Assembly (NCBI GenBank): GCA_002009975.1
Contig: MTLP01000031.1
Coordinates: 1-64,000, forward strand
Source: Thermococcus sp. JdFR-02
Lineage (GTDB): Archaea; Methanobacteriota_B; Thermococci; Thermococcales; Thermococcaceae
DNA: 64,000 nucleotides
Direction: 5' to 3'
The notes below the pieces were generated by a model that was not told the DNA's origin, ran no database searches, and saw only the letters and a list, made by a program, of their open reading frames with translations. Below, one piece after another: positions 1,143-14,428 of the stretch. The translations under genes were made by a program, and so were the position numbers. The number at the start of each line of letters is the position of its first letter. Position 1 is the stretch's first letter.

Positions 1143-1811
1143 ATGGAACTGATAAAACAAGGTGCAGAGGCTAAGATTTATCTAGCGAGATTTGAGGAGC
1201 TTTATTTTCCATTTAATGATGAAAAAGTTATTGTAAAATATAGGTTACCAAAGCGTTATAGAATAAAGGAAATTGATGAAAAGCTAAGAAAAGAAAGGAC
1301 AGTCAGAGAAGCGAGACTTTTGCACAGGGCTAAAGAATTCGGTGTGAATGTTCCTCACATTTATGAAGTTGATCTGAAAGATATGAAGATAGTTATGGAG
1401 TTTATAGAAGGAGAGAGATTAAAGGAGCTTTTAGAGAAAGTACCGATGGAAGAAAGACTAGAGCTTTGTAGAGAAATTGGGAGGCAATTGGGAAGGCTTC
1501 ACAATGCCGGCATAATTCATGGCGATTTAACGACTTCAAACATGATTTTAAGAGAGGGAAAAATTTACTTCATCGATTTTGGTCTTGGTGAGTTTGATGA
1601 CACTCTAGAAACCCAAGGCGTTGACTTGCACTTATTAAAGAGAGCAATGGAAAGCACACACTACAAGTGGTTTGAAAAAGGATTTGAAGCTGTTCTTGAA
1701 GGCTATGCAGAGGTTAGAGGAAAAGAAAAGGAAAAAGAGTTAAGAGAAAAAATTGACGAGATCGAGAGCAGGGGAAGATACGTGAAAGAAAGAAAGTGGA
1801 TGAAGGGTTAA
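1143..1811 (+). CDS. bud32: KEOPS complex kinase Bud32
   Basis: KQGAEA P-loop, KYRLPKRYR, HGDLTTSN, IDFGL; start moved to ATG 1143 after GGTGAGG SD. Confidence 0.93.
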   Translation: MELIKQGAEAKIYLARFEELYFPFNDEKVIVKYRLPKRYRIKEIDEKLRKERTVREARLLHRAKEFGVNVPHIYEVDLKDMKIVMEFIEGERLKELLEKVPMEERLELCREIGRQLGRLHNAGIIHGDLTTSNMILREGKIYFIDFGLGEFDDTLETQGVDLHLLKRAMESTHYKWFEKGFEAVLEGYAEVRGKEKEKELREKIDEIESRGRYVKERKWMKG

Positions 1812-3508
1812 TCCTTAAATGCCCTAAACACTCTCTCAAAAATTTCTCTCTCCTTTCCTCTCTTTGAGCGATATAAACGCTCAACAATTAACTCTGGAGT
1901 ACTCTTACCCAAAACACCAAATTTTGGCTGTCTATCAACAATTAAGTTCAGCCTTTCATCCAATCCCTTGGCTTCAATTCCATCAACCCTTGCAAAAGGC
2001 AAGAGCTTTTTCAAATCTTCACCCAAATGAGATACAATCACTATGTAAAAGCCATTCTCATATGCAACTTTCAAAAGCTCAGCAATTATTTTTACTGCTG
2101 CACCTGGCTCTGTTATTGCTTCAAACTCATCAATGAGAAGTAACTTTTTCCCCTTTCGCGTTAAAGCCCTAACAAAGGATTTTAAAGCAGTTTCAAATGC
2201 TCCAGCCCCGTAAATACTCTTTTTTCTCCTAAAGAAGAACAGCTCATCCAAAACTTCAACATATGCTTTCTCAGCATTCACTGGAAATCCCATTTGAGTT
2301 AAGATTTGAATCTGAGTAATCAGCTCAAGTAGGGAGGTTTTTCCACCACTGTTAGCTCCAGTTAAAATTATCACTTTCTCACCGTTTGCTCCGTCAAAAG
2401 GAATTTGCGCATTTCCAATTACGTAGCTTATTGGCTGAGGATTCCTGATAAAAAGATGTCTTCCATTAATAAAAGCGATTCCCCCTTCAATAAGTTCTGG
2501 AAATGCGAAACCTTTTGTAAATTCTTTGAGTGCCCTTAAAAACTCAAGCTCATAAGCCCTACTTAACTCTTCCTTAAGCTTTGGTAGCAAATGCTTGATT
2601 TTTTCTAAAACTTCTCTACTCTTTAAATACAGCTCGATTTTAAGTTCTTTTTCAAGCCCTCCCCTCAAAAGCTCAATTTGTTCAGTAAAAACTTCAATTG
2701 GATACAGATTCTCTCTTGAAAAAAGCTCAACAATAATGCCAAGCTTTTCGCTAAGCCTTTTCTCACTTTCATTAATCTCCTTCAAAATTTCCTCTTCAAC
2801 TTCGCTGAAATGCTTAAATATTGCATCATAATTTCCATCCTTTAAATCCCTTAAAAATTCCAAAAGCTCTTCTCCACTCAAAGTTAGACTAAACTTCTTC
2901 AATTTCTCCCCAATTCGTTTATTAAGCTCTCTTTCCTCTTGAGAAATTAGTTCATCCAGATTTTCGAGAAGCTTTTGCCTTTCCATCGTTTCTTCAAGTT
3001 CTTTTAATTGGTTCAAGATTTCTTCAGCAACGCTATTCTCACTAATAATTTCACCAATCTTTGCTAAAGCTTTCAAAGTTTCCCTATTCTCCCAAAGGGG
3101 CATTACATAAAGCTCGGGAGCAACATCACTGACACTAAGCTCAACATCAATTCCATAACCAATTGTGCTTAAGATGATATCATAGCCATCCAGAGGTTCC
3201 GTTGAGACCTCACAAACCCCTAAAGATCGAGCTTCCTCTAATTCATCCTCACTTACCACCAAGAGCCTATCGTGAAGAAAATCTCTCCTAAACCTTATCG
3301 GTTTAATTTTTGCCAAAAGTTCTTTAAGCTCAGGCTTAATTCTTGGAAAATTCTCTTTTAAGTAGAATTGGCGCTTTAGAATTTCTTCTTTATTGTTGGT
3401 TAAGCTAAAGCGTTCAAGATAGGCTAAGCTTTCCTTAAGCTGTATTTCTCTCTTTATTTCACTCAAAATTTGCTTATAAATTTGTCTTGCTTCGCTGTTG
3501 AGTTTCAT
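1808..3508 (-). CDS. MutS-family ATPase (domain V, MutS2-like, no Smr domain apparent)
   Basis: ILTGANSGGKTS Walker A, GAGAFE, LLIDEFE Walker B, VSHL; long coiled coil. Confidence 0.85.
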   Translation of the reverse strand: MKLNSEARQIYKQILSEIKREIQLKESLAYLERFSLTNNKEEILKRQFYLKENFPRIKPELKELLAKIKPIRFRRDFLHDRLLVVSEDELEEARSLGVCEVSTEPLDGYDIILSTIGYGIDVELSVSDVAPELYVMPLWENRETLKALAKIGEIISENSVAEEILNQLKELEETMERQKLLENLDELISQEERELNKRIGEKLKKFSLTLSGEELLEFLRDLKDGNYDAIFKHFSEVEEEILKEINESEKRLSEKLGIIVELFSRENLYPIEVFTEQIELLRGGLEKELKIELYLKSREVLEKIKHLLPKLKEELSRAYELEFLRALKEFTKGFAFPELIEGGIAFINGRHLFIRNPQPISYVIGNAQIPFDGANGEKVIILTGANSGGKTSLLELITQIQILTQMGFPVNAEKAYVEVLDELFFFRRKKSIYGAGAFETALKSFVRALTRKGKKLLLIDEFEAITEPGAAVKIIAELLKVAYENGFYIVIVSHLGEDLKKLLPFARVDGIEAKGLDERLNLIVDRQPKFGVLGKSTPELIVERLYRSKRGKEREIFERVFRAFKD

Positions 3509-4161: not shown

Positions 4162-4626
4162 TCATGTACCTTTTACTTTTCCAACAACCCTAATATCATA
4201 AATCCTCGTAAATGGGTATTGTCCTTTCTCATCCTTTTCTACTGCCTTAACCATGTCCCAAATGGTCAGCAAGGCAACGCTTACACCTGTTAAAGCCTCC
4301 ATTTCAACTCCAGTTTTGTAATACGCTCTAACTTCGCACGTTGCTTCTATGTAATCCTCACCAAATTCAAAGTTTATGTCAACTCCTGTTAGAGGAATTG
4401 GATGACAAAGAGGAATTATCTCCCAAGTTCTCTTTACCGCCAAAATTCCAGCTATTTGTGCACTCGCAATAACGTTTCCTTTCTTTGTTTTTCCTTCTTG
4501 AATGAGCCTTATAGTTTCAGGTTTGAGCTTTATCTTTCCCTTCGCTACAGCTTTTCTAAAGATTACCTCTTTATGCCCAACTTCGACCATCTTAACACCT
4601 TTTTCATCTACATGTGTCAATTCCAT
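4162..4626 (-). CDS. moaC: Cyclic pyranopterin monophosphate synthase MoaC
   Basis: [32 protein letters not shown]. Confidence 0.97.
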
Positions 4627-4716: not shown

Positions 4717-5046
4717 ATGGAGAAATTTATTATTACAACAACTGAATCTGTTCCGGGATATAAGATTGTTAAGGTTCTTGGTGTCGCAAGAGGAGCAACT
4801 GTTAGGGCTAAGCATATCGGTAAGGACATTTTAGCTGGGCTTAGAAATATAGTGGGTGGAGAGGTTAAGGAGTATAGCGAAATGCTTGCAGAGGCAAGGG
4901 AAGTTGCTATACAAAGGATGATTGAACATGCAAAAAGCATGGGAGCCAATGCTGTTATTGGAGTTCGCTTCATGACTTCAAGCATAGCCGCTGGAGCTGC
5001 AGAGATCTTTGCTTATGGAACTGCTGTTATCATTGAAAAAGAGTGA
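4717..5046 (+). CDS. YbjQ/UPF0145 family protein
   Basis: TTTESVPGY, GLRNIVGGE, AKSMGANAVIGV, AYGTAV. Confidence 0.92.
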   Translation: MEKFIITTTESVPGYKIVKVLGVARGATVRAKHIGKDILAGLRNIVGGEVKEYSEMLAEAREVAIQRMIEHAKSMGANAVIGVRFMTSSIAAGAAEIFAYGTAVIIEKE

Positions 5047-5128: not shown

Positions 5129-6079
5129 ATGAATCCCATTCTTAACATTGCAATGAAGGAGGTTTATATTCAACTGAAGACTAAGAGATTTTACATCATA
5201 ATCGGACTCTTTACTCTGCTTTCTCTTGGTTTTGTCTACTTAATAAAGAGCGTTGTTATGGGAAATCCAGAAACTATGAGATTTTATGAAGAACTTTATA
5301 AAGGTGCTTCACCTTTCCAGATGATATTCACATCCTCCTTCTCTGGTGCATTGAGTAATTTACTTCCATTTTTGGGTGGTTTACTTGGTTTTGACTTAAT
5401 AAACAGGGAAATTGAAAGAGGAACAATCAAAATAACCCTAAGCAAGCCTATATATAGAGATCAGTTTATAACTGGGAAGTTTTTGGGTTCAACCTTTACA
5501 ATTCTTGTCGGACTCGGAATATTCTACACCTTAACGATTGCATTTTCTCTTCTTTTAGGGATCCCCATAAGCGGAAAAGACCTAACAATGCTCCTTGCAA
5601 CATTCCCATTTTCTCTACTTTATACGCTTGTATTTTTAGCCCTCGGAACATTGTTCTCTATTATCGTGAAGAAGCCATCTACTGCTCTAATTGAACTAGT
5701 ACTTTCCATATTCTTCCTGCAGTTTATCTATCCGGTAATAGTTAGCATTGTTACAATGTTCTTAATGCGTGAACAAATTTTCCAAAACATGGCAACAAAC
5801 AATCAAGCAGTGATGCCAAATTTTGAAGAATATTACAAAATGGTAATGAGGTTAACATACATAGTTCCCTCAACTCACTATGGTGCAATAATGGGATCAA
5901 TCTTTGGTCAAAAAGTAGGAATGAGTGGTATTCAATTCTTTGGAGGGAGCTTATTCGAGGAGCGCTCACTTTTAGAGAGCTTAAGCTTAGTTTGGCAGAA
6001 TATTGTAACTTTAATAGTTATGCTGCTCCTGCCTTTCGCAATAGCCTATGCAAAGTTCATGAGAATGGATGTAAAGTGA
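5129..6079 (+). CDS. ABC-2/NosY-like ABC exporter permease (paralog 1)
   Basis: GFDLINREIERGTIK..LSKPIYRDQ..GKFLG; about 6 TM. Confidence 0.88.
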   Translation: MNPILNIAMKEVYIQLKTKRFYIIIGLFTLLSLGFVYLIKSVVMGNPETMRFYEELYKGASPFQMIFTSSFSGALSNLLPFLGGLLGFDLINREIERGTIKITLSKPIYRDQFITGKFLGSTFTILVGLGIFYTLTIAFSLLLGIPISGKDLTMLLATFPFSLLYTLVFLALGTLFSIIVKKPSTALIELVLSIFFLQFIYPVIVSIVTMFLMREQIFQNMATNNQAVMPNFEEYYKMVMRLTYIVPSTHYGAIMGSIFGQKVGMSGIQFFGGSLFEERSLLESLSLVWQNIVTLIVMLLLPFAIAYAKFMRMDVK

Positions 6080-6081
6080 TT

Positions 6082-6642
6082 CTAAACTAAGCTCTCTGCA
6101 ATTTTTACAGTTATTTTTGCTTCAATTAAAGCGGCGATGAAAATTAAAACTATTGAAATTGCTACGAGCTTGAAGAATTCCTTAGCGTCTTCTTCACTAA
6201 TGATCTCTTCCTTTTTACCCAAGGCAAATCTTAAGGCTTCGTAAGGAATCTTGAAGCCAGCTGCTCCGGCTATAATTAAAGCAGGGATTTCGAAAACACC
6301 ATGAGGAAAAATGAGTAGAAAAAACGCTTTAAGCTCTCCCGAGAGTAGAGAGTCATAAAATAGTGTTCCTAGATTTATGCCATTGAAAATCAAGTTCAGG
6401 AGTGTTAAACCGCCAAAAGTCAAGGCACCACCAAATGAGAGAAGTAGAACAACCTTAAGGTTATTCGTAAAGATGCTATTAAAAGAAGGTAAATTTGTAT
6501 TGACTTCGTATTCTAACAAGGGGGCTAAGTCTACACCATGTGGAATCTTGTAGCGTTTTGAAAGGCTTAATCCGAGAAGGAAGCCTAAGAATAAAAGAAA
6601 AACTGGAAAGGTTGCAAATTTAACGTTTATTCTATTTCCCAT
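6082..6642 (-). CDS. SpoIIM/DUF95 family membrane protein
   Basis: Family motifs IFTNNLKV, FNGINLG, PHGVFEIPA and C-terminal IAALIEA. Confidence 0.9.
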   Translation of the reverse strand: MGNRINVKFATFPVFLLFLGFLLGLSLSKRYKIPHGVDLAPLLEYEVNTNLPSFNSIFTNNLKVVLLLSFGGALTFGGLTLLNLIFNGINLGTLFYDSLLSGELKAFFLLIFPHGVFEIPALIIAGAAGFKIPYEALRFALGKKEEIISEEDAKEFFKLVAISIVLIFIAALIEAKITVKIAESLV

Positions 6643-6976
6643 GCTGTTCCACCATTGCTTTATCTTTTCCTTGTAACTCTTTCCTTACTTCTTCAATGGT
6701 TCCAAGGAAACCAGCAAACCCTATTATCAATAGTGCGAACCCTAATGAGGATCCTATGAAACTTTCCATCGAGTAAACTAGTGGTCTTTCAATCAGTCCA
6801 ACAAGCTGCCAAAGTAAGATTATTATGCTGATAAAAACCCCTGGCACAATGCTTAGCATGATATCCTTTAGCGTTATTTTGCATTTCCCTAGAGTTACAT
6901 AGAACTTCATTTTGCTGTCCCTTAAGGTATTCTGAAGTTTTTCTATCCTAACTATTTTTATAATTTCCTTTGGCAT
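6632..6976 (-). CDS. Small 2-TM membrane protein, candidate immunity/accessory protein (start uncertain: 6976 or 6910)
   Basis: Basic N-terminus plus two hydrophobic helices; overlaps both neighbours, suggesting translational coupling. Confidence 0.65.
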   Translation of the reverse strand: MPKEIIKIVRIEKLQNTLRDSKMKFYVTLGKCKITLKDIMLSIVPGVFISIIILLWQLVGLIERPLVYSMESFIGSSLGFALLIIGFAGFLGTIEEVRKELQGKDKAMVEQHGK

Positions 6977-7352
6977 TGTTCCACTTCCCAGAGTATAAGG
7001 TAAGCAATGTAAGCACAAGACATCCGACTATTAGGGTATAGGCATCTCTCACAGAAGTCTTCATAAGGTTCAAAACCCCTGCAATGACCGCCATACTTAA
7101 GAATACACAAAGCCCAATCCAGAGTAGAAGCGTGAAATGTTTTATCTCAATCTCATCTTTCTCGGCTTTAATGCCGATGTATGCGAGTATTATAACTACA
7201 TAAGACGTAATGAAAGCTAGGGAAAGGATTGGAAATTCCACTATACTGAGGGATTTTGAGATAACAATCTCAGCAAGCAAAGCAGAGAAAATAGCTGTCA
7301 AGAATATTCTTCCTAATAACTTTTCGAGATCTTTCAGTTTTACTCTGCTCAT
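6948..7352 (-). CDS. Small 4-TM membrane protein, candidate immunity/accessory protein
   Basis: 134 aa from ATG 7352 after GAGGTGA SD; four hydrophobic helices. Confidence 0.75.
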   Translation of the reverse strand: MSRVKLKDLEKLLGRIFLTAIFSALLAEIVISKSLSIVEFPILSLAFITSYVVIILAYIGIKAEKDEIEIKHFTLLLWIGLCVFLSMAVIAGVLNLMKTSVRDAYTLIVGCLVLTLLTLYSGKWNNAKGNYKNS

Positions 7353-7369
7353 TTTACTCACCTCGTTAT

Positions 7370-7385
7370 AAATAAAAATTAAAAA
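7370..7385 (-). terminator. Oligo-T tract after the peptide gene (probable partial terminator)
   Basis: Minus strand TTTTTAATTTTTATTT immediately after the TGA. Confidence 0.4.
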
Positions 7386-7691
7386 TCAAGCAGTATCAAT
7401 AACAGCAAGAACCAAAAATCCTTTACCTGCGAATCTACAGAACTTTGTAAATTTTGATGCTCTTCTAAATACCTTTGAAGCTGCAAGAAATCCCCCTCCC
7501 ATTGTCACATGTTTGAGAGCTGCATCAGTCCAACCGAAATATCCTTTAACAAATTCACTAAACCTACCAGTTTTATGCCATCTGTATGCTCCATATGCAA
7601 TTCCTATCTCCGCCTTTTCTTCAACTGCTCCACTCACAACCATTCCTACAGCCATCAACACTAGCCCCAACACCAAAGCCTTCCTCCACAT
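7386..7691 (-). CDS. Secreted cationic amphipathic peptide, putative bacteriocin-like (archaeocin) precursor
   Basis: 101 aa from ATG 7691 after GGAGGTG SD; about 22-aa signal peptide, then a Gly/Ala/Phe-rich, K/R-rich core; first gene of the SpoIIM cassette. Confidence 0.7.
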   Translation of the reverse strand: MWRKALVLGLVLMAVGMVVSGAVEEKAEIGIAYGAYRWHKTGRFSEFVKGYFGWTDAALKHVTMGGGFLAASKVFRRASKFTKFCRFAGKGFLVLAVIDTA

Positions 7692-7737
7692 TTGAAACAC
7701 CTCCTAATTTCCCACTTGTAATTTGCTGTCCGAATAC

Positions 7738-7753
7738 TATTTAAAGTTTTCTT
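7738..7753 (-). promoter_or_regulatory. BRE/TATA promoter of the peptide-SpoIIM cassette
   Basis: Minus strand AAGAAAACTTTAAATA about 50 nt upstream of ATG 7691. Confidence 0.6.
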
Positions 7754-7858
7754 TATATTTCATAATTACTATTGACATTTTTATGATAATTAAACGAAAA
7801 ATATAATAATGATGAATAGTAATACTTTTAAGCAAATAAAACATTATTTAAAAAGGTG

Positions 7859-8836
7859 ATGGAGATGAAGGCTCTGAACATTGCCCTAAAGGATTTTGAA
7901 GTCAGCATAAAAACAAAGCGCTTTCAAATAATAATTGCACTTTTTGCACTTCTATCACTGGGGATGGTTTACTACTCAAAAAGACTCGGTGTGAGCCAGG
8001 AGCTTTACAAAACACCCTTTCAAATGCTTTTTCTTTCAAGCTTTTCGAATAGCTTTAACTATATTATAACATTGCTTGCAATAATCTTAGGCAGCACATT
8101 GATAAACAGCGAAATAGAAAAAGGAACATTAAGGGTTTTAGCCTCAAAACCTCTCTACAGAGACCAAATCGTCTTTGGCAAATTTCTTGGAGGAGCGATG
8201 ATATTAACCGTTGCATTAACATTGTTCTATCTTCTAACATTAGCATCCTCATTATTGCTTGGAATACCTATTACAGTCGCAGATTTAGAAAAACTTGCCG
8301 TCACTTTCCCATTTAGTCTCTTTTATGGATTAGTCTTTCTAAATCTTGGGCTCTTAATTTCGACATTTATCAAAAAGCCAAAAAATGCTTTAATCTTAGG
8401 GGTTTTTCTTTTCATATTCTTTTCTTTCATACTTCCGATAATAGCTGGAATAATAGGGTTTGCAGTTGCTGGTTTACCTCCAATTCCAAACATTCCAGAA
8501 AATACCACTGACTTAACAGAGGAGCAGCTTCAAGAATTTTTCATTAAAGACCCAACTTATCAAGAATGGCTAACTAAATTAACACAAACATCGGAAAAAG
8601 TTCTAATGATCTCCCCGAACTACCACTATCAAGAGATCCTAAGAATACTCTTTGGAGCAAAGCCCCAAATAAGCGAAATAGTTTCTGCCTTTGTTTATAA
8701 TCAGAATGTTGTTGAAGATCGTCCACTTAAAGAATCCCTTTCTTTAATTTGGCAAAACATAACAACTTTAATAGTAATGTTTTTATTATCCTTTATCCTA
8801 ACTTACACCAAATTTATGAAGATGAGCTTGAGGTGA
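7859..8836 (+). CDS. ABC-2/NosY-like permease (paralog 2)
   Basis: INSEIEKGTLRVLASKPLYRDQIVFGKFLG; start may be 7865. Confidence 0.88.
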   Translation: MEMKALNIALKDFEVSIKTKRFQIIIALFALLSLGMVYYSKRLGVSQELYKTPFQMLFLSSFSNSFNYIITLLAIILGSTLINSEIEKGTLRVLASKPLYRDQIVFGKFLGGAMILTVALTLFYLLTLASSLLLGIPITVADLEKLAVTFPFSLFYGLVFLNLGLLISTFIKKPKNALILGVFLFIFFSFILPIIAGIIGFAVAGLPPIPNIPENTTDLTEEQLQEFFIKDPTYQEWLTKLTQTSEKVLMISPNYHYQEILRILFGAKPQISEIVSAFVYNQNVVEDRPLKESLSLIWQNITTLIVMFLLSFILTYTKFMKMSLR

Positions 8837-8841
8837 GAAAT

Positions 8842-9758
<917 letters not shown>

Positions 9759-9759
<1 letters not shown>

Positions 9760-11975
9760 TGAAGATGAAAAAACAAACAATTCTGCTGGTTTTAGTTCTC
9801 CTACTTTCTTTAGTCCCCTTAAGTTATGGTGAACCATGGATAGAAGTTTACACGGGAAAAGTAAAGATTGGAGAAAGCTTAATCGTTGGAGAATACAAGA
9901 TAAAGATAACCCAAGAAGAGACAACCTTAAACCCCTATGCAATAATCTACAAGGGAGATAGCATTATCGCTGTTGGAAGTTTAACATTTGGAAATCAAGT
10001 TGAAGGGGAAAATGTAAGGATAACTGCCGGAAGATCTGATGGAAGGGAAGTTTTTGTTCTCATTCAATATAAGCCAGAGCTAATTAAAGAGATAAAACCT
10101 AAAGCTGGAGAATCCTTTAACATTGATGGTTATATTGTCGAAATACTCGATGCAACCAATGAGAGCGTTTCTCTTAAAATTAAAGGAATAGAGAATGCAG
10201 CACTAACCATAAAAGAAGGATATTCTGTAAACTATGATAAATTAGCCTTTGAATACACGGATGGAAGTTTAAAAGCTTATTTAGCAAAAGTTGATATAAA
10301 AAGAGAAGAAACAAAAGATTACCAAATTTATTATCCCTTTGAGTCTTTAAAAGTAGAGGCTGGAAAAAGCGTTCAGATACCAATAACTGTAATCAATGAA
10401 GGAAATCAAGATCTAATTCTTAGCCTAAAAATCCTTTCAATGCCAAATAACTGGGAAGCAAAGATATTAGATTCTCAAACAAGCTATGAGGTAAGCAAAG
10501 TAACTGTAAGAGCTGGAAGTAGTGTGAGCTTTATTTTGTTTGTTAAAATCCCCGAGAACGCAGAAGGAATAAACAAAGTCAAGTTTGCTATTGGAGAGGA
10601 GATAGGAGAAATCACATTCAACGTGTTCAAAAAGGAAGAAATTGATGTCAGAATTCCAGTTTTAGCTATCGAAAGTGAAGCAGGACAGGTTGTTAATTTT
10701 CCAATTACCCTCATAAACTTTGGAGAAGAAAAAAGTGTTGAAGTTAAGATACTTGAGAAACCAGAAAACTGGGAAGCTTATTTTGTACTTAATGGACAAA
10801 GAGTAAAATCGTTCTCCTTACTTACTCAAGAAACGCTGACACTTGTCATTGAAACTCCAAGAAATGCCGATCTGGGGGAACACAAGATAGAGTTTTCTGT
10901 TAATGGGATTAATTATTCTGTTAGCGTTTTCATCTACAAAACTCACAAGGGTGAAAAAGCCACTTTAACGCTTAGAATTGTTGATGATGAGTCAAAACCA
11001 GTTCCAAATGCTAAAGTAACTATTGGAAATGAAGAATATATAACAGATTCTCAAGGTAGTTTAGAGCTTAAACTAAATCCAGGAGATTACATTATCGAAG
11101 TTGAAAAAGAGGGCTATGAAAAAACCAAAGAGGAGATAAGCCTCTTAGATGGTGAAGAAAAGTCATTGACAATTAGGCTAAATAGGGCAGGCTATTATTT
11201 CAAAGCTGAGATTGAAAGTGATCACTTAACAATTCAGTTTGGATCCCAACTTTCCTATGAAGTGAGGATAGTGAATTTAGGCAAACTTGAAGACGGGTAT
11301 CAGCTCGAATTAAGTGGTTTACCTTCTGATTGGGCATACATGTTCCTAAGGGATCCTCAAAGTAACATCCAAGCTCAAAGTGTTAAGCTTGGTAGTGGTG
11401 AAACTAAGGCGGTGTATCTAAGGATAATACCCTCTTACAATGCACAGCCAGGAACCTACAATGCCACGCTTATAATAACGAGCGCCTCTGGATTGAAATA
11501 CGAGAAAAAGCTAGAGGTGGAACTAATAGGTAGCTACGAAATGGATATCATGCTCCAAAATTATTACGTTCCAGTTCAGGCGGGCAAAGAAATCTCAATT
11601 CCAGTGACACTTCGCAACCTTGGGAGTGCTCCTATAACTAACATAAACTTTGAGGTAAGTGCCCCAGAAGGATGGGAAGTTGAAGTTGTCCCTTCAAGAA
11701 TAGCAAAGCTTGAGCCAAGTTATTCTAGAGAAGGGAAGATGGTGGTGATTGGAAGTGGAGGAGAAAGAGTAACCCTTAACATAAAAGTCCCTGAAACCAC
11801 CCCCGCTGGAGAATACAAAGTCACAATAAGAGCAAAAGGTGATCAAGCAGAGAGAGAAACAGAGCTTAGGGTAAGGGTTAGACAAAGCTCAAGTTCTGCT
11901 TATCTTGGGATTTTAATTCTAATCCTTGCATTTGGAGGACTAATATTCATGATGAGGCGCATTGGGAGGCGTTGA
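9759..11975 (+). CDS. Membrane-anchored multi-Ig-fold surface protein (NEW3-domain / carboxypeptidase-regulatory-like repeats)
   Basis: Signal peptide; repeated (N)xG..P..W..P....G.Y beta-sandwich units; PGDYIIEVEKEGYE; C-terminal TM with basic tail. Confidence 0.8.
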
Positions 11976-11976
11976 G

Positions 11977-12960
11977 ATGAAGGAGCTAAACATAGCAATG
12001 AAAGAGTTTTACATAGCAGTGAGGAGCAAGAGATTCATTGGTCTTTTGCTTTTTTACATTATCTTGTTAGTTTTGATGAACTATGCTCAAAAAGATGAGA
12101 TAATAAACTTAGCTGGTCAAATAAGAGTTACACGTTTCGGTGCACTCGGAGGAGAAGGTACTGTTGTGTTTACTGCAGTTTCATTGTCAATATTCTCAAA
12201 TTTAATGAGTTTGTCAGTTTTTGGTGCTCTAATTGGAATAACCCTTGGTGCAGACGCTATAAATAGGGAAATTGAAGAAGGAACGGTAAAAGTTTTAATG
12301 AGCCATCCCATTTATAGGGATCAGGTGATTAATGGGAAGTTTTTAGGAAACGGTTTAGCTCTTTTGCTTATGATTATAATCGGATATACAATAACAATGT
12401 CATTCCTGCTTTTAATTGGAGTTCCATTGGATCAAGAATCTGTGATTAGGGCATTCTTGGCATCTTTTTACACGCTCATATATATGCTGACCTTTTTAAG
12501 TCTTGGAATAATGATCTCATCAATTATAAAGAAACCCGAAACTTCCATGCTTCTAGCAATAATACTCGCGATAATGCTCACAATAGTGTATCCAGTTATT
12601 TCTACAGTTATCTCTAATAAAATAGCAGGTGATGAGCCTTACTGCCCTCCAAAAATTGAAAGGATAGAGACACCTACAGGAATTCAAGAAGTTAGGATGA
12701 TGGACTATGAATGCCCAGCGTATGTAGAATGGAAAAATAAGAGAGAAATCTGGCAAAAAAGACTAAATCTTCTCACACCAACTTCTCATTATTCTCAACT
12801 CATAGCAAGTGCTTTTGCCGGAGATGAACTTGCACAGGATTATCTGCCAATAAGTGAAGCCATTCCTTTAGCATTTAACAACTTGGCGATACTATTAGTT
12901 CAGCTCTTACTTCCATTTAGCATAGCCTACATGAGATTTATGACAAGTGACTTAACTTGA
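11977..12960 (+). CDS. ABC-2/NosY-like permease (paralog 3)
   Basis: GADAINREIEEGTVKVLMSHPIYRDQVINGKFLG. Confidence 0.88.
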   Translation: MKELNIAMKEFYIAVRSKRFIGLLLFYIILLVLMNYAQKDEIINLAGQIRVTRFGALGGEGTVVFTAVSLSIFSNLMSLSVFGALIGITLGADAINREIEEGTVKVLMSHPIYRDQVINGKFLGNGLALLLMIIIGYTITMSFLLLIGVPLDQESVIRAFLASFYTLIYMLTFLSLGIMISSIIKKPETSMLLAIILAIMLTIVYPVISTVISNKIAGDEPYCPPKIERIETPTGIQEVRMMDYECPAYVEWKNKREIWQKRLNLLTPTSHYSQLIASAFAGDELAQDYLPISEAIPLAFNNLAILLVQLLLPFSIAYMRFMTSDLT

Positions 12961-12988: not shown

Positions 12989-14428
12989 TCAGCCCTTTGC
13001 AACTCCCATTGGTCTCATTCTTGCAACAAGCTTTGCTATTCCGGCTTTTGCAACAGTTTGAACAACGTTGTCAACGCTCTTATATGCTCCTGGGGCTTCT
13101 TCAGCAATTACTCTCTTACTTGCTGCTCTAATGTAAATTCCCCTTTGTAATAACTCTCTTTGTACGTTATCTCCTCTATATTGCCTCGTTGCTGCATGTC
13201 TACTCAAAACTCTCCCAGCACCATGGCAAGTTGAACCAAATGCTTCCTTCATAGCTCCTTCTGTTCCAGCCAAAATATAGCTTGCAGTTCCCATTGAACC
13301 AGGTATTAGAACAGGCTGTCCAACATCTCTATAAATCTTCGGAACAGCTTCATGTCCTGGTGGGAATGCCCTTGTAGCACCTTTTCTATGAACAACAACC
13401 TTTACCTTTTTGCCGTTTATCTCATGCTCCTCCAGCTTAGCTATGTTATGAGCAACATCATAGACAATGTGCATTCCTAAATCTTCAGCCTTTTGCTTAA
13501 ATACTTCCTCAAAGCTTTCTCTAACCCAATGCGTTATCATCTGCCTATTAGCCCAAGCAAAGTTTGCAGCAGCTTTCATAGCACTGAAGTATCTTTGACC
13601 CTCTTCACTCTCAAATGGAACGCTAACCAATTCTCTGTCAGGCCAGGGGACATTGTACTTCCTAACAGCTCTTTCCATAATCTTTAGATAGTCACTACAA
13701 ACTTGATGACCTAATCCACGAGAGCCAGTGTGAATCATTACAACAACTTGTCCCTCAAAGAGACCATAAGCTTTTGCAACCTCCTCATCAAAGATCTTAT
13801 CAACAACCTGGACTTCTAAAAAGTGATTTCCACTTCCCAAAGAACCCAATTGAGGTGCTCCTCTTTGCTTTGCCCTTTCACTTACATAGCGGGGATTTGC
13901 GCCTTCCATCCTTCCTCCTTCTTCTAATCTCTCCAAGTCCTCTTTCCAACCATAACCATGATCAACTGCCCATTTTGCACCATTGACCAAAACCTCATCT
14001 AATTGGGTCCAGTAAAGCCTAATCTTTCCTCTACTACCAACCCCACTTGGAACGTTTTTGAAAAGAGTATCTACAATTTGTTTAATTTTTGGTCTAACTT
14101 CCTTTTCGGTTAAGTTAGTTCTAACTAACCTAACACCACAATTGATATCATAACCAACTCCCCCCGGGCTTATAACGCCTTCTTTTGCATCAAAAGCAGC
14201 TACACCACCAATTGGAAATCCATAACCTTGGTGACCGTCTGGCATTACAATAGAATACCTATAAATCCCAGGGAGCATTGCAACATTAGCGGCTTGCTCT
14301 AATGTCTTATCTTGTCTCATCTTTTGGATTAAGAGATCATCGGCATACACTCTACCTGGCACTCTCATCCTTCTATCAAACTTTGGTATTTCCCATCTTA
14401 TATTATCAATTCTTTTCAACGGTATCAT
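12989..14428 (-). CDS. rtcB: RNA ligase RtcB (intein-free)
   Basis: [45 protein letters not shown]. Confidence 0.97.

Follow-up and report, generated by a model that had tools for sequence, protein, structure and literature searches.

What is a SpoIIM/DUF95 gene doing behind a small, secreted-type peptide gene in a hyperthermophilic archaeon? The question is raised by four tightly packed genes, confirmed on the minus strand at positions 6082 to about 7752 of a 64,000-nucleotide stretch of Thermococcus sp. JdFR-02 (contig MTLP01000031.1, positions 1 to 64,000; the whole of this stretch is referred to as the window). We read the locus as one cassette of a polymorphic, bacteriocin-like toxin/immunity system in hyperthermophilic archaea, a reading to which we give a probability of roughly 60%. 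It is built on gene order, the pattern of conservation, co-variation between neighbouring genes, copy-number dynamics and co-occurrence with an ATP-binding cassette (ABC) operon, all of which are observed.

A conserved promoter and leader ahead of variable cores

In the direction of transcription, the cassette opens with the gene for a secreted-type peptide of 101 amino acids (7386-7691), whose ATG at 7691 is preceded by a GGAGGTG ribosome-binding site. It continues, on the same minus strand, with a protein of 134 amino acids with four hydrophobic segments (the 4-transmembrane or 4-TM protein, 6948-7352), which is a candidate cognate immunity protein, a 2-TM protein of 92 amino acids (6632-6910), a candidate immunity protein or SpoIIM partner, and an accessory SpoIIM/DUF95 protein of 186 amino acids with five predicted TM helices (6082-6642), proposed to be a leader processing and/or export component. 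These genes and their coordinates agree with a sequence-only reading of the same DNA. That reading also had the last three genes overlapping one another, which is true of the 2-TM and SpoIIM genes alone: they have 11 nt (6632-6642) in common, and 37 nt separate the 4-TM stop from the 2-TM start if ATG 6910 is taken, as used by the 2-TM homologues. Behind the peptide gene, the T-tract noticed earlier is indeed found, with TGATTTTTAATTTTTATTT directly 3' of the stop codon and intergenic tracts of T5, T5 and T3 on the minus strand (7353..7385), a possible archaeal oligo-T attenuator of read-through into the membrane-protein genes. By eye, the alignment shows comparable T-tracts behind the peptide gene in about 6 of the 25 other cassettes aligned, and the remainder are directly coupled.

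The operon had been credited with its own B recognition element and TATA box (BRE/TATA), and comparison bears this out. In the window, AGAAAAC and TTTAAATA (approximately 7738..7752, minus strand) lie about 50 nt upstream of the peptide ATG. The motif recurs as GAAAACTTTAAATAGTAT, or as AAAAACTTTTTAT in another genus, about 45-50 nt upstream of most of 26 aligned leader genes; it is missing in three, each of which starts right behind a preceding SpoIIM gene. Because it is conserved across leader genes, the BRE/TATA of the window is more than a chance match in AT-rich DNA.

The first 22 residues of the peptide (MWRK...SGA; 7626..7691, minus strand) form a hydrophobic, signal-peptide-like leader, proposed to be an export and recognition element, with the n/h/c layout of a signal peptide as judged by inspection, without a predictor. 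Alignment of 22 peptides gives the leader consensus MWRKALVLGLVLMAxGMVVGGAVE, in which M1, W2, K4, L6, G9, V11, L12 and G16 are invariant, and beyond which the sequences are unalignable between core types. Over the first 22 codons of 28 leader genes, the proportion of synonymous differences (pS) is 0.59, near saturation, versus 0.126 for nonsynonymous differences (pN; pN/pS 0.21), so the leader is held by selection on the protein and not by recent copying. Recent gene conversion was considered as the source of the leader's conservation and ruled out, given DNA identities of 70-86% and near-saturated synonymous sites. The DNA of the promoter and leader (7900-7567) is 81% and 79% identical to two paralogues in the same genome. 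Similarity from cassette to cassette is limited to this segment and the 3' part of the SpoIIM gene (6474-6089; 69-85%), and 7567-6912 has no nucleotide similarity to other cassettes. The leader would be removed at or after its GG(A) turn.

Pilins, too, combine a conserved N-terminus with a variable C-terminus, and the peptides might be pilin-like proteins with a class III signal peptide, in which a hydrophobic helix at the N-terminus is conserved and the C-terminal part varies. The motif of the prepilin peptidase is a basic residue, then G or A, then a hydrophobic stretch, which K4-A5-L6 of the Thermococcaceae leader fits. However, the motif is missing in most of the homologous Archaeoglobaceae and Methanococci-like cassettes described below, whose leaders instead have in common a helix end G-x-x-V followed by GG or P. 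The cores are helical and Gly/Ala-rich, unlike pilins, and gene maps link no pilus genes across the loci, so that we consider a pilin-like nature extremely improbable.

What follows the leader in the window is a core of 79 amino acids (7386..7625 with the stop codon, minus strand), predicted to be all-helical, with a net charge of +7, a pI of 9.9 and no TM-grade hydrophobic stretch; it is the putative membrane-active product. It resembles related cores in a YG.YRWHKTG block alone. The peptides are 68-110 amino acids long, with cores of 45-88, and the cores fall into at least seven types unrelated to one another. No Pfam or NCBIfam family above threshold was found for the peptide, the 4-TM or the 2-TM protein; at E <= 0.1, NCBIfam gave no match for the first two and far-sub-threshold rows only for the third, and the Protein Atlas gave chance-level rows only (<= 0.81). 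The window peptide has 9 relatives among 5.8 billion clustered proteins, and the peptide profile finds 25 representative clusters among 1.84 billion. A glycine zipper was also looked for: the window core has no triple small-xxx-small motif, other cores have up to 15, and the Gly-zipper models of Pfam reach E 0.06-0.07 at best, in 2 of 22 peptides.

Where a core type recurs in another genome, the small TM family that comes with it is also the same. Cores of type VGLVFAKDYLID are partnered by a 3-TM protein of 105-110 amino acids in 5/5 cassettes, HKYN..EKYH.YM cores by a 1-TM protein of 65-72 amino acids in 4/4, NLTYRLTK cores by a 71-amino acid protein in 2/2, and ESF.VWK.T.SE cores by a protein of 70-75 amino acids in 2/2; the YG.YRWHKTGD..CPY type goes with the 2-TM family of the window. 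Such co-variation is what a toxin/immunity pairing predicts. The 2-TM protein, found by tblastn at 46-59% identity behind related cores in loci L006, L007 and L009, belongs to a divergent 2-TM family that sits directly upstream of SpoIIM in many cassettes. The 4-TM protein has no homologue in any other fetched cassette, has sub-threshold Pfam hints only, and among 5.8 billion proteins finds itself and one 89%-identical metagenome protein. The locus is more than chance: homologues of the leader, of the 2-TM protein and of SpoIIM recur elsewhere with their order unchanged.

A further observation concerns the 1-TM partners. In L026:2192-2740 (contig 15 of the window genome), L027, L043 and L045, a stretch of 31-32 residues in the downstream 1-TM protein resembles the N-terminal helical part of the peptide core of its own cassette (62-69% identity, E 3e-11). 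This holds for 4/4 cassettes of that type and for 4/31 cassettes tested overall, and perhaps the 1-TM protein confers immunity by mimicking its own toxin or pairing with it.

Base composition around the cassette gives no island signal (GC 0.34-0.42 throughout), and positions 5900-7754 are present letter for letter in an independent marine metagenome. Contigs from RNA libraries cover just two segments, 5900-6423 and 7626-7900, at the conserved ends. Identity is about 90% for some of these contigs, and most continue into unlike sequence; they stem from the cassettes of relatives, so transcription of the window cassette is only hinted at, and the uncovered middle of the cassette carries no meaning.

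Accessory SpoIIM and the spread of the cassette family

The segment 6082-6642 matches PF01944 with an E value of 1.1e-29 (104 bits versus a cut-off of 26.9) over profile positions 3-162 of 163, which settles the SpoIIM/DUF95 identity proposed for it from the sequence alone. The NN, NG and PHGxxE motifs on which that proposal leaned are present, and their key residues belong to a set (N61, N87, G92, P113, H114, G115, E118, E174 and T178) that is invariant across 35 accessory and housekeeping SpoIIM sequences. The score against the sporulation equivalog TIGR02831 is 14.1 bits, far under the cut-off of 100.2, and the protein is therefore not the sporulation SpoIIM of B. subtilis itself. According to the available text of the papers cited here and below, DUF95 proteins are implicated in leader cleavage, possibly with circularisation (PMC13463998), and in secretion together with an ABC ATPase (PMC7132975), are treated as class-defining for circular bacteriocins (PMC13289728, PMC8534725), and in archaea are for the most part products of genes that stand by themselves (PMC5898192).

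Within the accessory copies, the C-terminal 100 or so amino acids are near-invariant and the N-terminal 90 or so variable. The N-terminal half comes in two types, each going with a different set of cores, and the accessory copies carry an invariant loop, GFKIPYE..R.A.GKKEE..EEDAKEFFK, that housekeeping copies lack. The window SpoIIM is 27-37% identical to housekeeping copies (38% to one of them in a separate comparison) and 36% identical to the SpoIIM of a Bacillus bacteriocin cluster. In a quick maximum likelihood tree with midpoint rooting, of which a careful search is unfinished, the accessory Thermococcaceae copies form one clade (98 in the Shimodaira-Hasegawa-like approximate likelihood ratio test, SH-aLRT), the housekeeping clade stands apart (99), and the accessory clade joins other peptide-linked archaeal copies (83-91); its tie to the Bacillus bacteriocin SpoIIM is weak (84). 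The separate clades of this quick tree reject the possibility that the accessory copy is a recent duplicate of the housekeeping one. The AlphaFold2 (AF2) model has five helices and a good predicted local distance difference test score (pLDDT 82.4), and a Foldseek search of PDB with it offers no hint, from structure, of either a protease or a transporter fold. A predicted complex of SpoIIM with the precursor scored 0.15 versus a mark of 0.32, without controls, and is no evidence either way.

The window genome has four SpoIIM genes. One (L002) is without an adjacent leader peptide; at the other three, i.e. the window, a contig-7 locus and a contig-15 locus, the gene upstream of SpoIIM starts with nearly the same 22 residues. 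Downstream of the intact contig-7 cassette lies a decayed second one (L025:2351-3091), with a leader gene broken by a stop (46 amino acids and a Gly-rich remainder of 60), a 123-amino acid TM protein and a 66-amino acid fragment resembling the SpoIIM N-terminus; it looks like an orphan module. The linkage holds beyond this genome, with a SpoIIM homologue downstream of the leader gene at 20 of 21 first-round loci (the exception being a 396-nt contig) and behind 29 of 34 leader genes in the larger set. Of 96 other genomes in the family, 20 have strong matches to the leader-peptide profile (E <= 2.4e-10), and the profile has no match in 36 genomes from five other families of the phylum. SpoIIM is matched in all 79 good-quality genomes, exactly once in 56. 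More than one match is found in 22 other genomes, 19 of which have the leader. All 11 genomes checked have one housekeeping copy, the locus of which, in the window's own genome, is without a leader peptide.

Cassettes reach up to six matches per genome, tandem arrays occur, and many copies are split, truncated or stop-containing, in the peptide as well as in the SpoIIM gene. The sequence-only reading had raised the questions whether the peptide is an invariant, widely conserved protein unlinked to SpoIIM and whether other Thermococcales have SpoIIM loci with variable small precursors. The peptides form a patchy, hypervariable family adjoining an extra SpoIIM copy, and in relatives the leader is conserved and the cores are hypervariable. 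What that reading overlooked is the polymorphic, multi-copy nature of the cassette and the relevance of the flanking ABC operon.

One array (L035; G086:C47:225500-239000) has five leader-gene matches and SpoIIM genes within about 9 kb, some of them truncated. Between the copies lie two overlapping minus-strand open reading frames (ORFs) of 138 and 141 amino acids, the sizes of which equal those of the HEPN/nucleotidyltransferase pair of L043. In one genus (L028, L029, L034, L043, L045 and L049), cassettes lie at one recurring site that adjoins a 429-amino acid ORF, in L028 an AAA_14/DUF4143 ATPase. Four of these loci also adjoin a 179-amino acid ORF (in L028 an inorganic pyrophosphatase), sometimes with Rpo7 upstream, and L049 has kept a split SpoIIM alone.

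HEPN/nucleotidyltransferase pairs, a PIN gene and AAA_14/DUF4143 ATPases adjoin some cassettes, which are moreover small, like toxin/antidote modules. The cassette might encode a self-acting membrane toxin with its antidote, i.e. an addiction or abortive-infection module in a defence island, and not a secreted antimicrobial. We think this very unlikely: a conserved, signal-like leader and an ABC exporter both suggest an outward route, some of the cassettes stand among housekeeping genes such as pyrophosphatase, Rpo7, SRP54 and purS/Q, and SpoIIM has no match in phage records. Its plasmid matches include none from Thermococcales.

The distribution also bears on whether the system is a weapon at all. 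SpoIIM could insert or handle the peptides as small membrane proteins that serve membrane remodelling, vesicle formation, surface variation or kin recognition, with the small TM proteins as structural partners. Many cores do have strongly hydrophobic, Gly/Ala-rich C-terminal segments that are potential TM helices (KD19 > 2 in 7 of 22), no toxin family is matched, and for archaeal SpoIIM (arCOG01994) a part in remodelling membranes or forming vesicles has been predicted (PMC5898192). But patchiness, multi-copy arrays, frequent decay and hypervariable cores paired with partners typify conflict systems, the window core is cationic and amphipathic without a TM-grade segment, and a dedicated ABC exporter co-occurs with the cassettes, which leaves the non-weapon explanation distinctly unlikely.

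The ABC operon, other neighbours and distant relatives

Divergent from the cassette, on the plus strand, lies an operon whose first gene encodes an ABC-2 permease (7856..8836; PF12679, E 4.7e-37). It is followed by a DrrA/GldA-like ABC ATPase (8842..9759; PF00005, E 2.4e-32, and DrrA1-3_C, with TIGR01188 at E 1.5e-87, just under its cut-off), a surface protein of 739 amino acids (9756..11975) with NPCBM_assoc/NEW3, CarboxypepD_reg and weak CARDB matches, and a second ABC-2 permease (11962..12960; PF12679, E 1.8e-54). Pfam and NCBIfam scans detected no C39 peptidase domain in the ABC genes. A further ABC-2 permease (5129..6079, plus strand), 48% identical to that at 7856-8836, is convergent with SpoIIM, and its membership of the system is uncertain.

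Orthologues of the permease 7856-8836 (at least 55% identity, E <= 1e-121) are found in 15 of 96 other genomes, and all 15 bear the leader. The 76 genomes in which the leader has no strong match are all without one; among full-length matches, the next best reach at most 46% identity. The permease is adjacent and divergent to a cassette, as in the window, in 7 of the 15 genomes and lies elsewhere in one genus; in two near-complete genomes of this genus, both the leader peptide and the operon are missing. A weaker second permease match is located about 4 kb from the orthologous permease in other genomes. Since kin are not independent, we count the co-occurrence as four genus-level coincidences and not as a statistic. 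The contig-15 paralogue still resembles the permease gene over the first 44 nt of the latter, and this remnant suggests that the ABC-adjacent arrangement may be the older one. A second, paralogous operon of permease, ATPase, large protein and permease occurs in three genera, with or without a cassette, its first permease being 38-46% identical.

Among the other neighbours, a 566-amino acid ORF (1808-3508, minus strand) with weak MutS_V/AAA_14 P-loop matches (E about 1e-5, below cut-offs) is an uncharacterised ATPase, and MoaC (4162-4626, minus strand), a YbjQ-family protein (4717-5046, plus strand) and the RNA ligase RtcB (12989-14428, minus strand) are ordinary.

More distant cassettes were searched for with an Archaeoglobus SpoIIM that is 47% identical to that of the window. 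In Archaeoglobaceae, a Methanococci metagenome-assembled genome and an unclassified archaeon, a peptide of about 100 amino acids and small TM proteins precede SpoIIM, the gene of which is truncated in some of these loci. Their leaders differ from that of Thermococcaceae and are conserved within each group, with the common helix end given above, and the C-terminal motif of SpoIIM is kept. At two Archaeoglobales loci, a CARDB protein and an ABC ATPase come after a SpoIIM remnant, with a MacB/FtsX permease next in one of them, and the Methanococci locus runs on one strand from the peptide through a 3-TM protein, SpoIIM, Yip1, a CARDB protein and a 170-amino acid ORF to an ABC ATPase. On the Methanomethylovorans hollandica plasmid pMETHO01 (L153:2589-4237), two nearly identical, very hydrophobic ORFs of 66 amino acids without Pfam match lie upstream of SpoIIM, with Yip1, a regulator and ABC permeases nearby; this is possibly another archaeal peptide-SpoIIM system, carried on a plasmid.

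Proposed mechanism and comparison with known systems

Secretion, cleavage, toxicity, immunity and the partnership of SpoIIM with the ABC system are inferred in what follows. The conserved promoter would drive a precursor whose conserved hydrophobic leader inserts into the membrane, and either signal peptidase or SpoIIM would release the core on the outside of the membrane, close to the GG(A) turn. The core of the window (79 amino acids, +7, helical and amphipathic) would then attack the membranes of competitors without a matching cassette, and the variable small membrane proteins, here the 4-TM and/or the 2-TM protein, would protect the producer. The accessory SpoIIM may handle the peptide of every cassette via the shared leader, processing and/or exporting it; its invariant C-terminal half (PHGxxE, the later Glu and Thr, and the conserved loop) would serve all cassettes through that leader and a shared partner. 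The co-occurring single-copy ABC system is the obvious candidate for this shared export partner. A more speculative version, which we hold to be unlikely, is that hyperthermophilic archaea make head-to-tail cyclised, heat-stable peptides from exchangeable cassettes, the accessory SpoIIM cutting the leader, closing the ring and passing the product to the ABC exporter; its invariant His and Glu residues at the outer leaflet would in that case recognise the shared hydrophobic leader and act catalytically. Should this be so, the DUF95 family would gain a biochemical function, and the housekeeping archaeal copy might be a signal-peptide-processing protein.

Several points weigh against a toxin/immunity system. 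Transcription of the cassette is only hinted at, by RNA contigs of relatives. A scan for bacteriocin families has no hit at E <= 1 for any of the 22 peptides, with a Bacillus precursor, as a positive control, matching PF09221 (E 2.3e-6), and the window peptide has no similarity to that precursor (BLASTP E 17). The AF2 model of the core, from eight sequences, shows four helices but is unreliable (pLDDT 54, predicted template modelling score 0.33), and Foldseek finds 0 matches to it in PDB at E <= 0.001. The good SpoIIM model likewise has 0 PDB matches at E <= 0.001; it is unlike any solved structure, so a catalytic role is hypothetical. The leader looks like an ordinary Sec signal, and a dedicated peptidase is therefore not required; its profile weakly matches (7e-5 to 9e-4) the N-termini of unrelated ORFs of 347-403 amino acids in five genomes, which are ordinary signal peptides. 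Co-variation of adjacent genes can reflect physical linkage alone. SpoIIM proteins have other roles: there are the housekeeping copies without a peptide, and the family (arCOG01994 in archaea) has the predicted remodelling or vesicle role noted above (PMC5898192) and has been linked to the lipoprotein-biogenesis gene aliA (PMC12462473). The cassettes beside HEPN/nucleotidyltransferase, PIN or AAA_14 genes would also fit a defence island. Finally, most cassettes are not adjacent to the ABC operon, and five leader-bearing genomes are without an orthologue of at least 55% identity; two of these have a completeness of about 80%, and in one a match of 72 residues survives next to the cassette.

The cassette family offers natural, presumably heat-stable and putatively membrane-active peptides, paired with candidate immunity genes, in genera that can be cultured; Thermococcus and Pyrococcus species are among those with accessory SpoIIM copies. 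That a single conserved leader and a single conserved half of SpoIIM go with many cores amounts to a natural experiment on recognition by DUF95, the function of which is unsettled even in the biosynthesis of bacterial circular bacteriocins, and a weapon would have a bearing on strain competition in hydrothermal communities. We know of no characterised archaeocin from Thermococcales. No description of archaeal peptide-SpoIIM cassettes was found in the literature searched, though Makarova et al. 2019 (mBio), which reportedly predicts archaeocin-like loci, or its supplements may list such loci. They are not described in the available portions of PMC5898192, PMC6393860, PMC8416519, PMC9425974 and PMC12462473. 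A survey of archaeal homologues of known bacteriocins, in its available text, mentions neither circular bacteriocins nor DUF95, and states that few archaeocins have been described in detail (10.64898/2026.07.27.741052).

Compared with known systems, the accessory SpoIIM belongs to one Pfam family with housekeeping archaeal SpoIIM (arCOG01994); both keep the invariant residues (N, N, PHG..E and E..T), and both are predicted to have five helices. The accessory protein differs from the housekeeping one in sequence (27-37% identity) and in falling into a separate clade (98 vs 99 SH-aLRT), and the housekeeping gene of its own genome has no leader peptide at its locus. At class II bacteriocin loci, several variable peptides have a double-glycine leader in common and are accompanied by small immunity proteins. 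The archaeal cassettes likewise have a shared leader with GG near its end, variable Gly/Ala-rich, membrane-active cores (so predicted), small TM immunity candidates and an ABC transporter. Unlike those of class II, however, the archaeal leader is a hydrophobic, signal-like helix and not a polar double-glycine leader, and SpoIIM takes the place of the C39 peptidase domain, none being seen in the ABC genes of the window. An archaeal C39-peptidase example is mentioned in the available text of PMC6393860.

The closest parallel in gene content is with circular bacteriocin clusters, of which those of AS-48 type were compared through paper descriptions only and that of the Bacillus thuringiensis plasmid pYGD30 directly; the latter comprises an annotated circular bacteriocin of the uberolysin/carnocyclin family, Yip1, a 572-amino acid protein, an ABC ATPase and SpoIIM. 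In both, a small leader-bearing precursor stands beside a PF01944 SpoIIM/DUF95 gene, in the window within one operon, with small hydrophobic candidate immunity proteins. An ABC ATPase and permeases accompany them, in the window on the adjacent divergent operon and in the Methanococci locus (ATPase) on the same strand; most other cassettes are without an adjacent ABC gene. Yip1 occurs in one archaeal relative, and the Bacillus precursor also has a long hydrophobic leader. On the other hand, the archaeal peptide has no sequence similarity to known circular bacteriocins, its leader is strongly conserved with cores swapped behind it, whereas circular-bacteriocin leaders are described as variable and devoid of motifs (PMC13463998), a single genome holds several, polymorphic copies of the cassette, the ABC genes lie mostly outside the operon, and the host is an archaeon. 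The circular-bacteriocin-like cassette of the sequence-only reading therefore stands as to gene content, which parallels the bacterial clusters, and lacks a counterpart in the peptides, 0/22 of which match a bacteriocin family.

That the core is severed from its leader and its two ends are then linked, head to tail, to give a circular archaeocin, with the accessory SpoIIM as leader peptidase/cyclase or export partner, seems to us doubtful but well within the possible. In its favour, SpoIIM/DUF95 is called class-defining for circular bacteriocins (PMC13289728), and it counts that precursor, DUF95 and ATP-binding protein are all present or adjacent, that Yip1 in the Methanococci locus recalls Bacillus clusters (PMC8534725), that cores measure 45-88 amino acids, that 20 of 22 of them, read by eye, end in a hydrophobic residue without a charged tail, and that the PF09221-matching precursor opens with a similarly signal-like leader. 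Yet no sequence match ties the peptides to PF09221 or another bacteriocin family, and the fold model of the core is unreliable (pLDDT 54). The residues after the presumed cleavage site are mostly acidic (VEE...), and mutagenesis found charged residues at the ligation site unfavourable (PMC13463998). The archaeal cassettes, by eye on gene maps, lack a large polytopic membrane protein like that of the 572-amino acid Bacillus gene, and the window SpoIIM is no closer to the Bacillus bacteriocin-cluster copy (36%) than to a housekeeping one (38%), with a weak link between the former two in the quick tree (SH-aLRT 84).

Polymorphic toxin/immunity loci, which have been discussed for archaea in the available text of PMC8416519 and PMC6393860, resemble the family in their architecture. 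Like them, the cassettes join a conserved N-terminal part, for export, to a C-terminal one that is hypervariable and differently selected. Downstream comes a cognate partner gene, copies occur in tandem or as decayed orphans, and the distribution is patchy. Such loci are characterised by conserved N-terminal parts, variable toxic ends and orphan modules. The archaeal products differ in being peptides of 68-110 amino acids and not large multidomain proteins, in having no enzymatic toxin domain, and in that the conserved 3' boundary is formed by a SpoIIM gene, the N-terminal half of which itself changes along with the cassette. We rate as the novelty of the system that machinery like that of circular bacteriocins appears to be recast, in archaea, as a polymorphic cassette.

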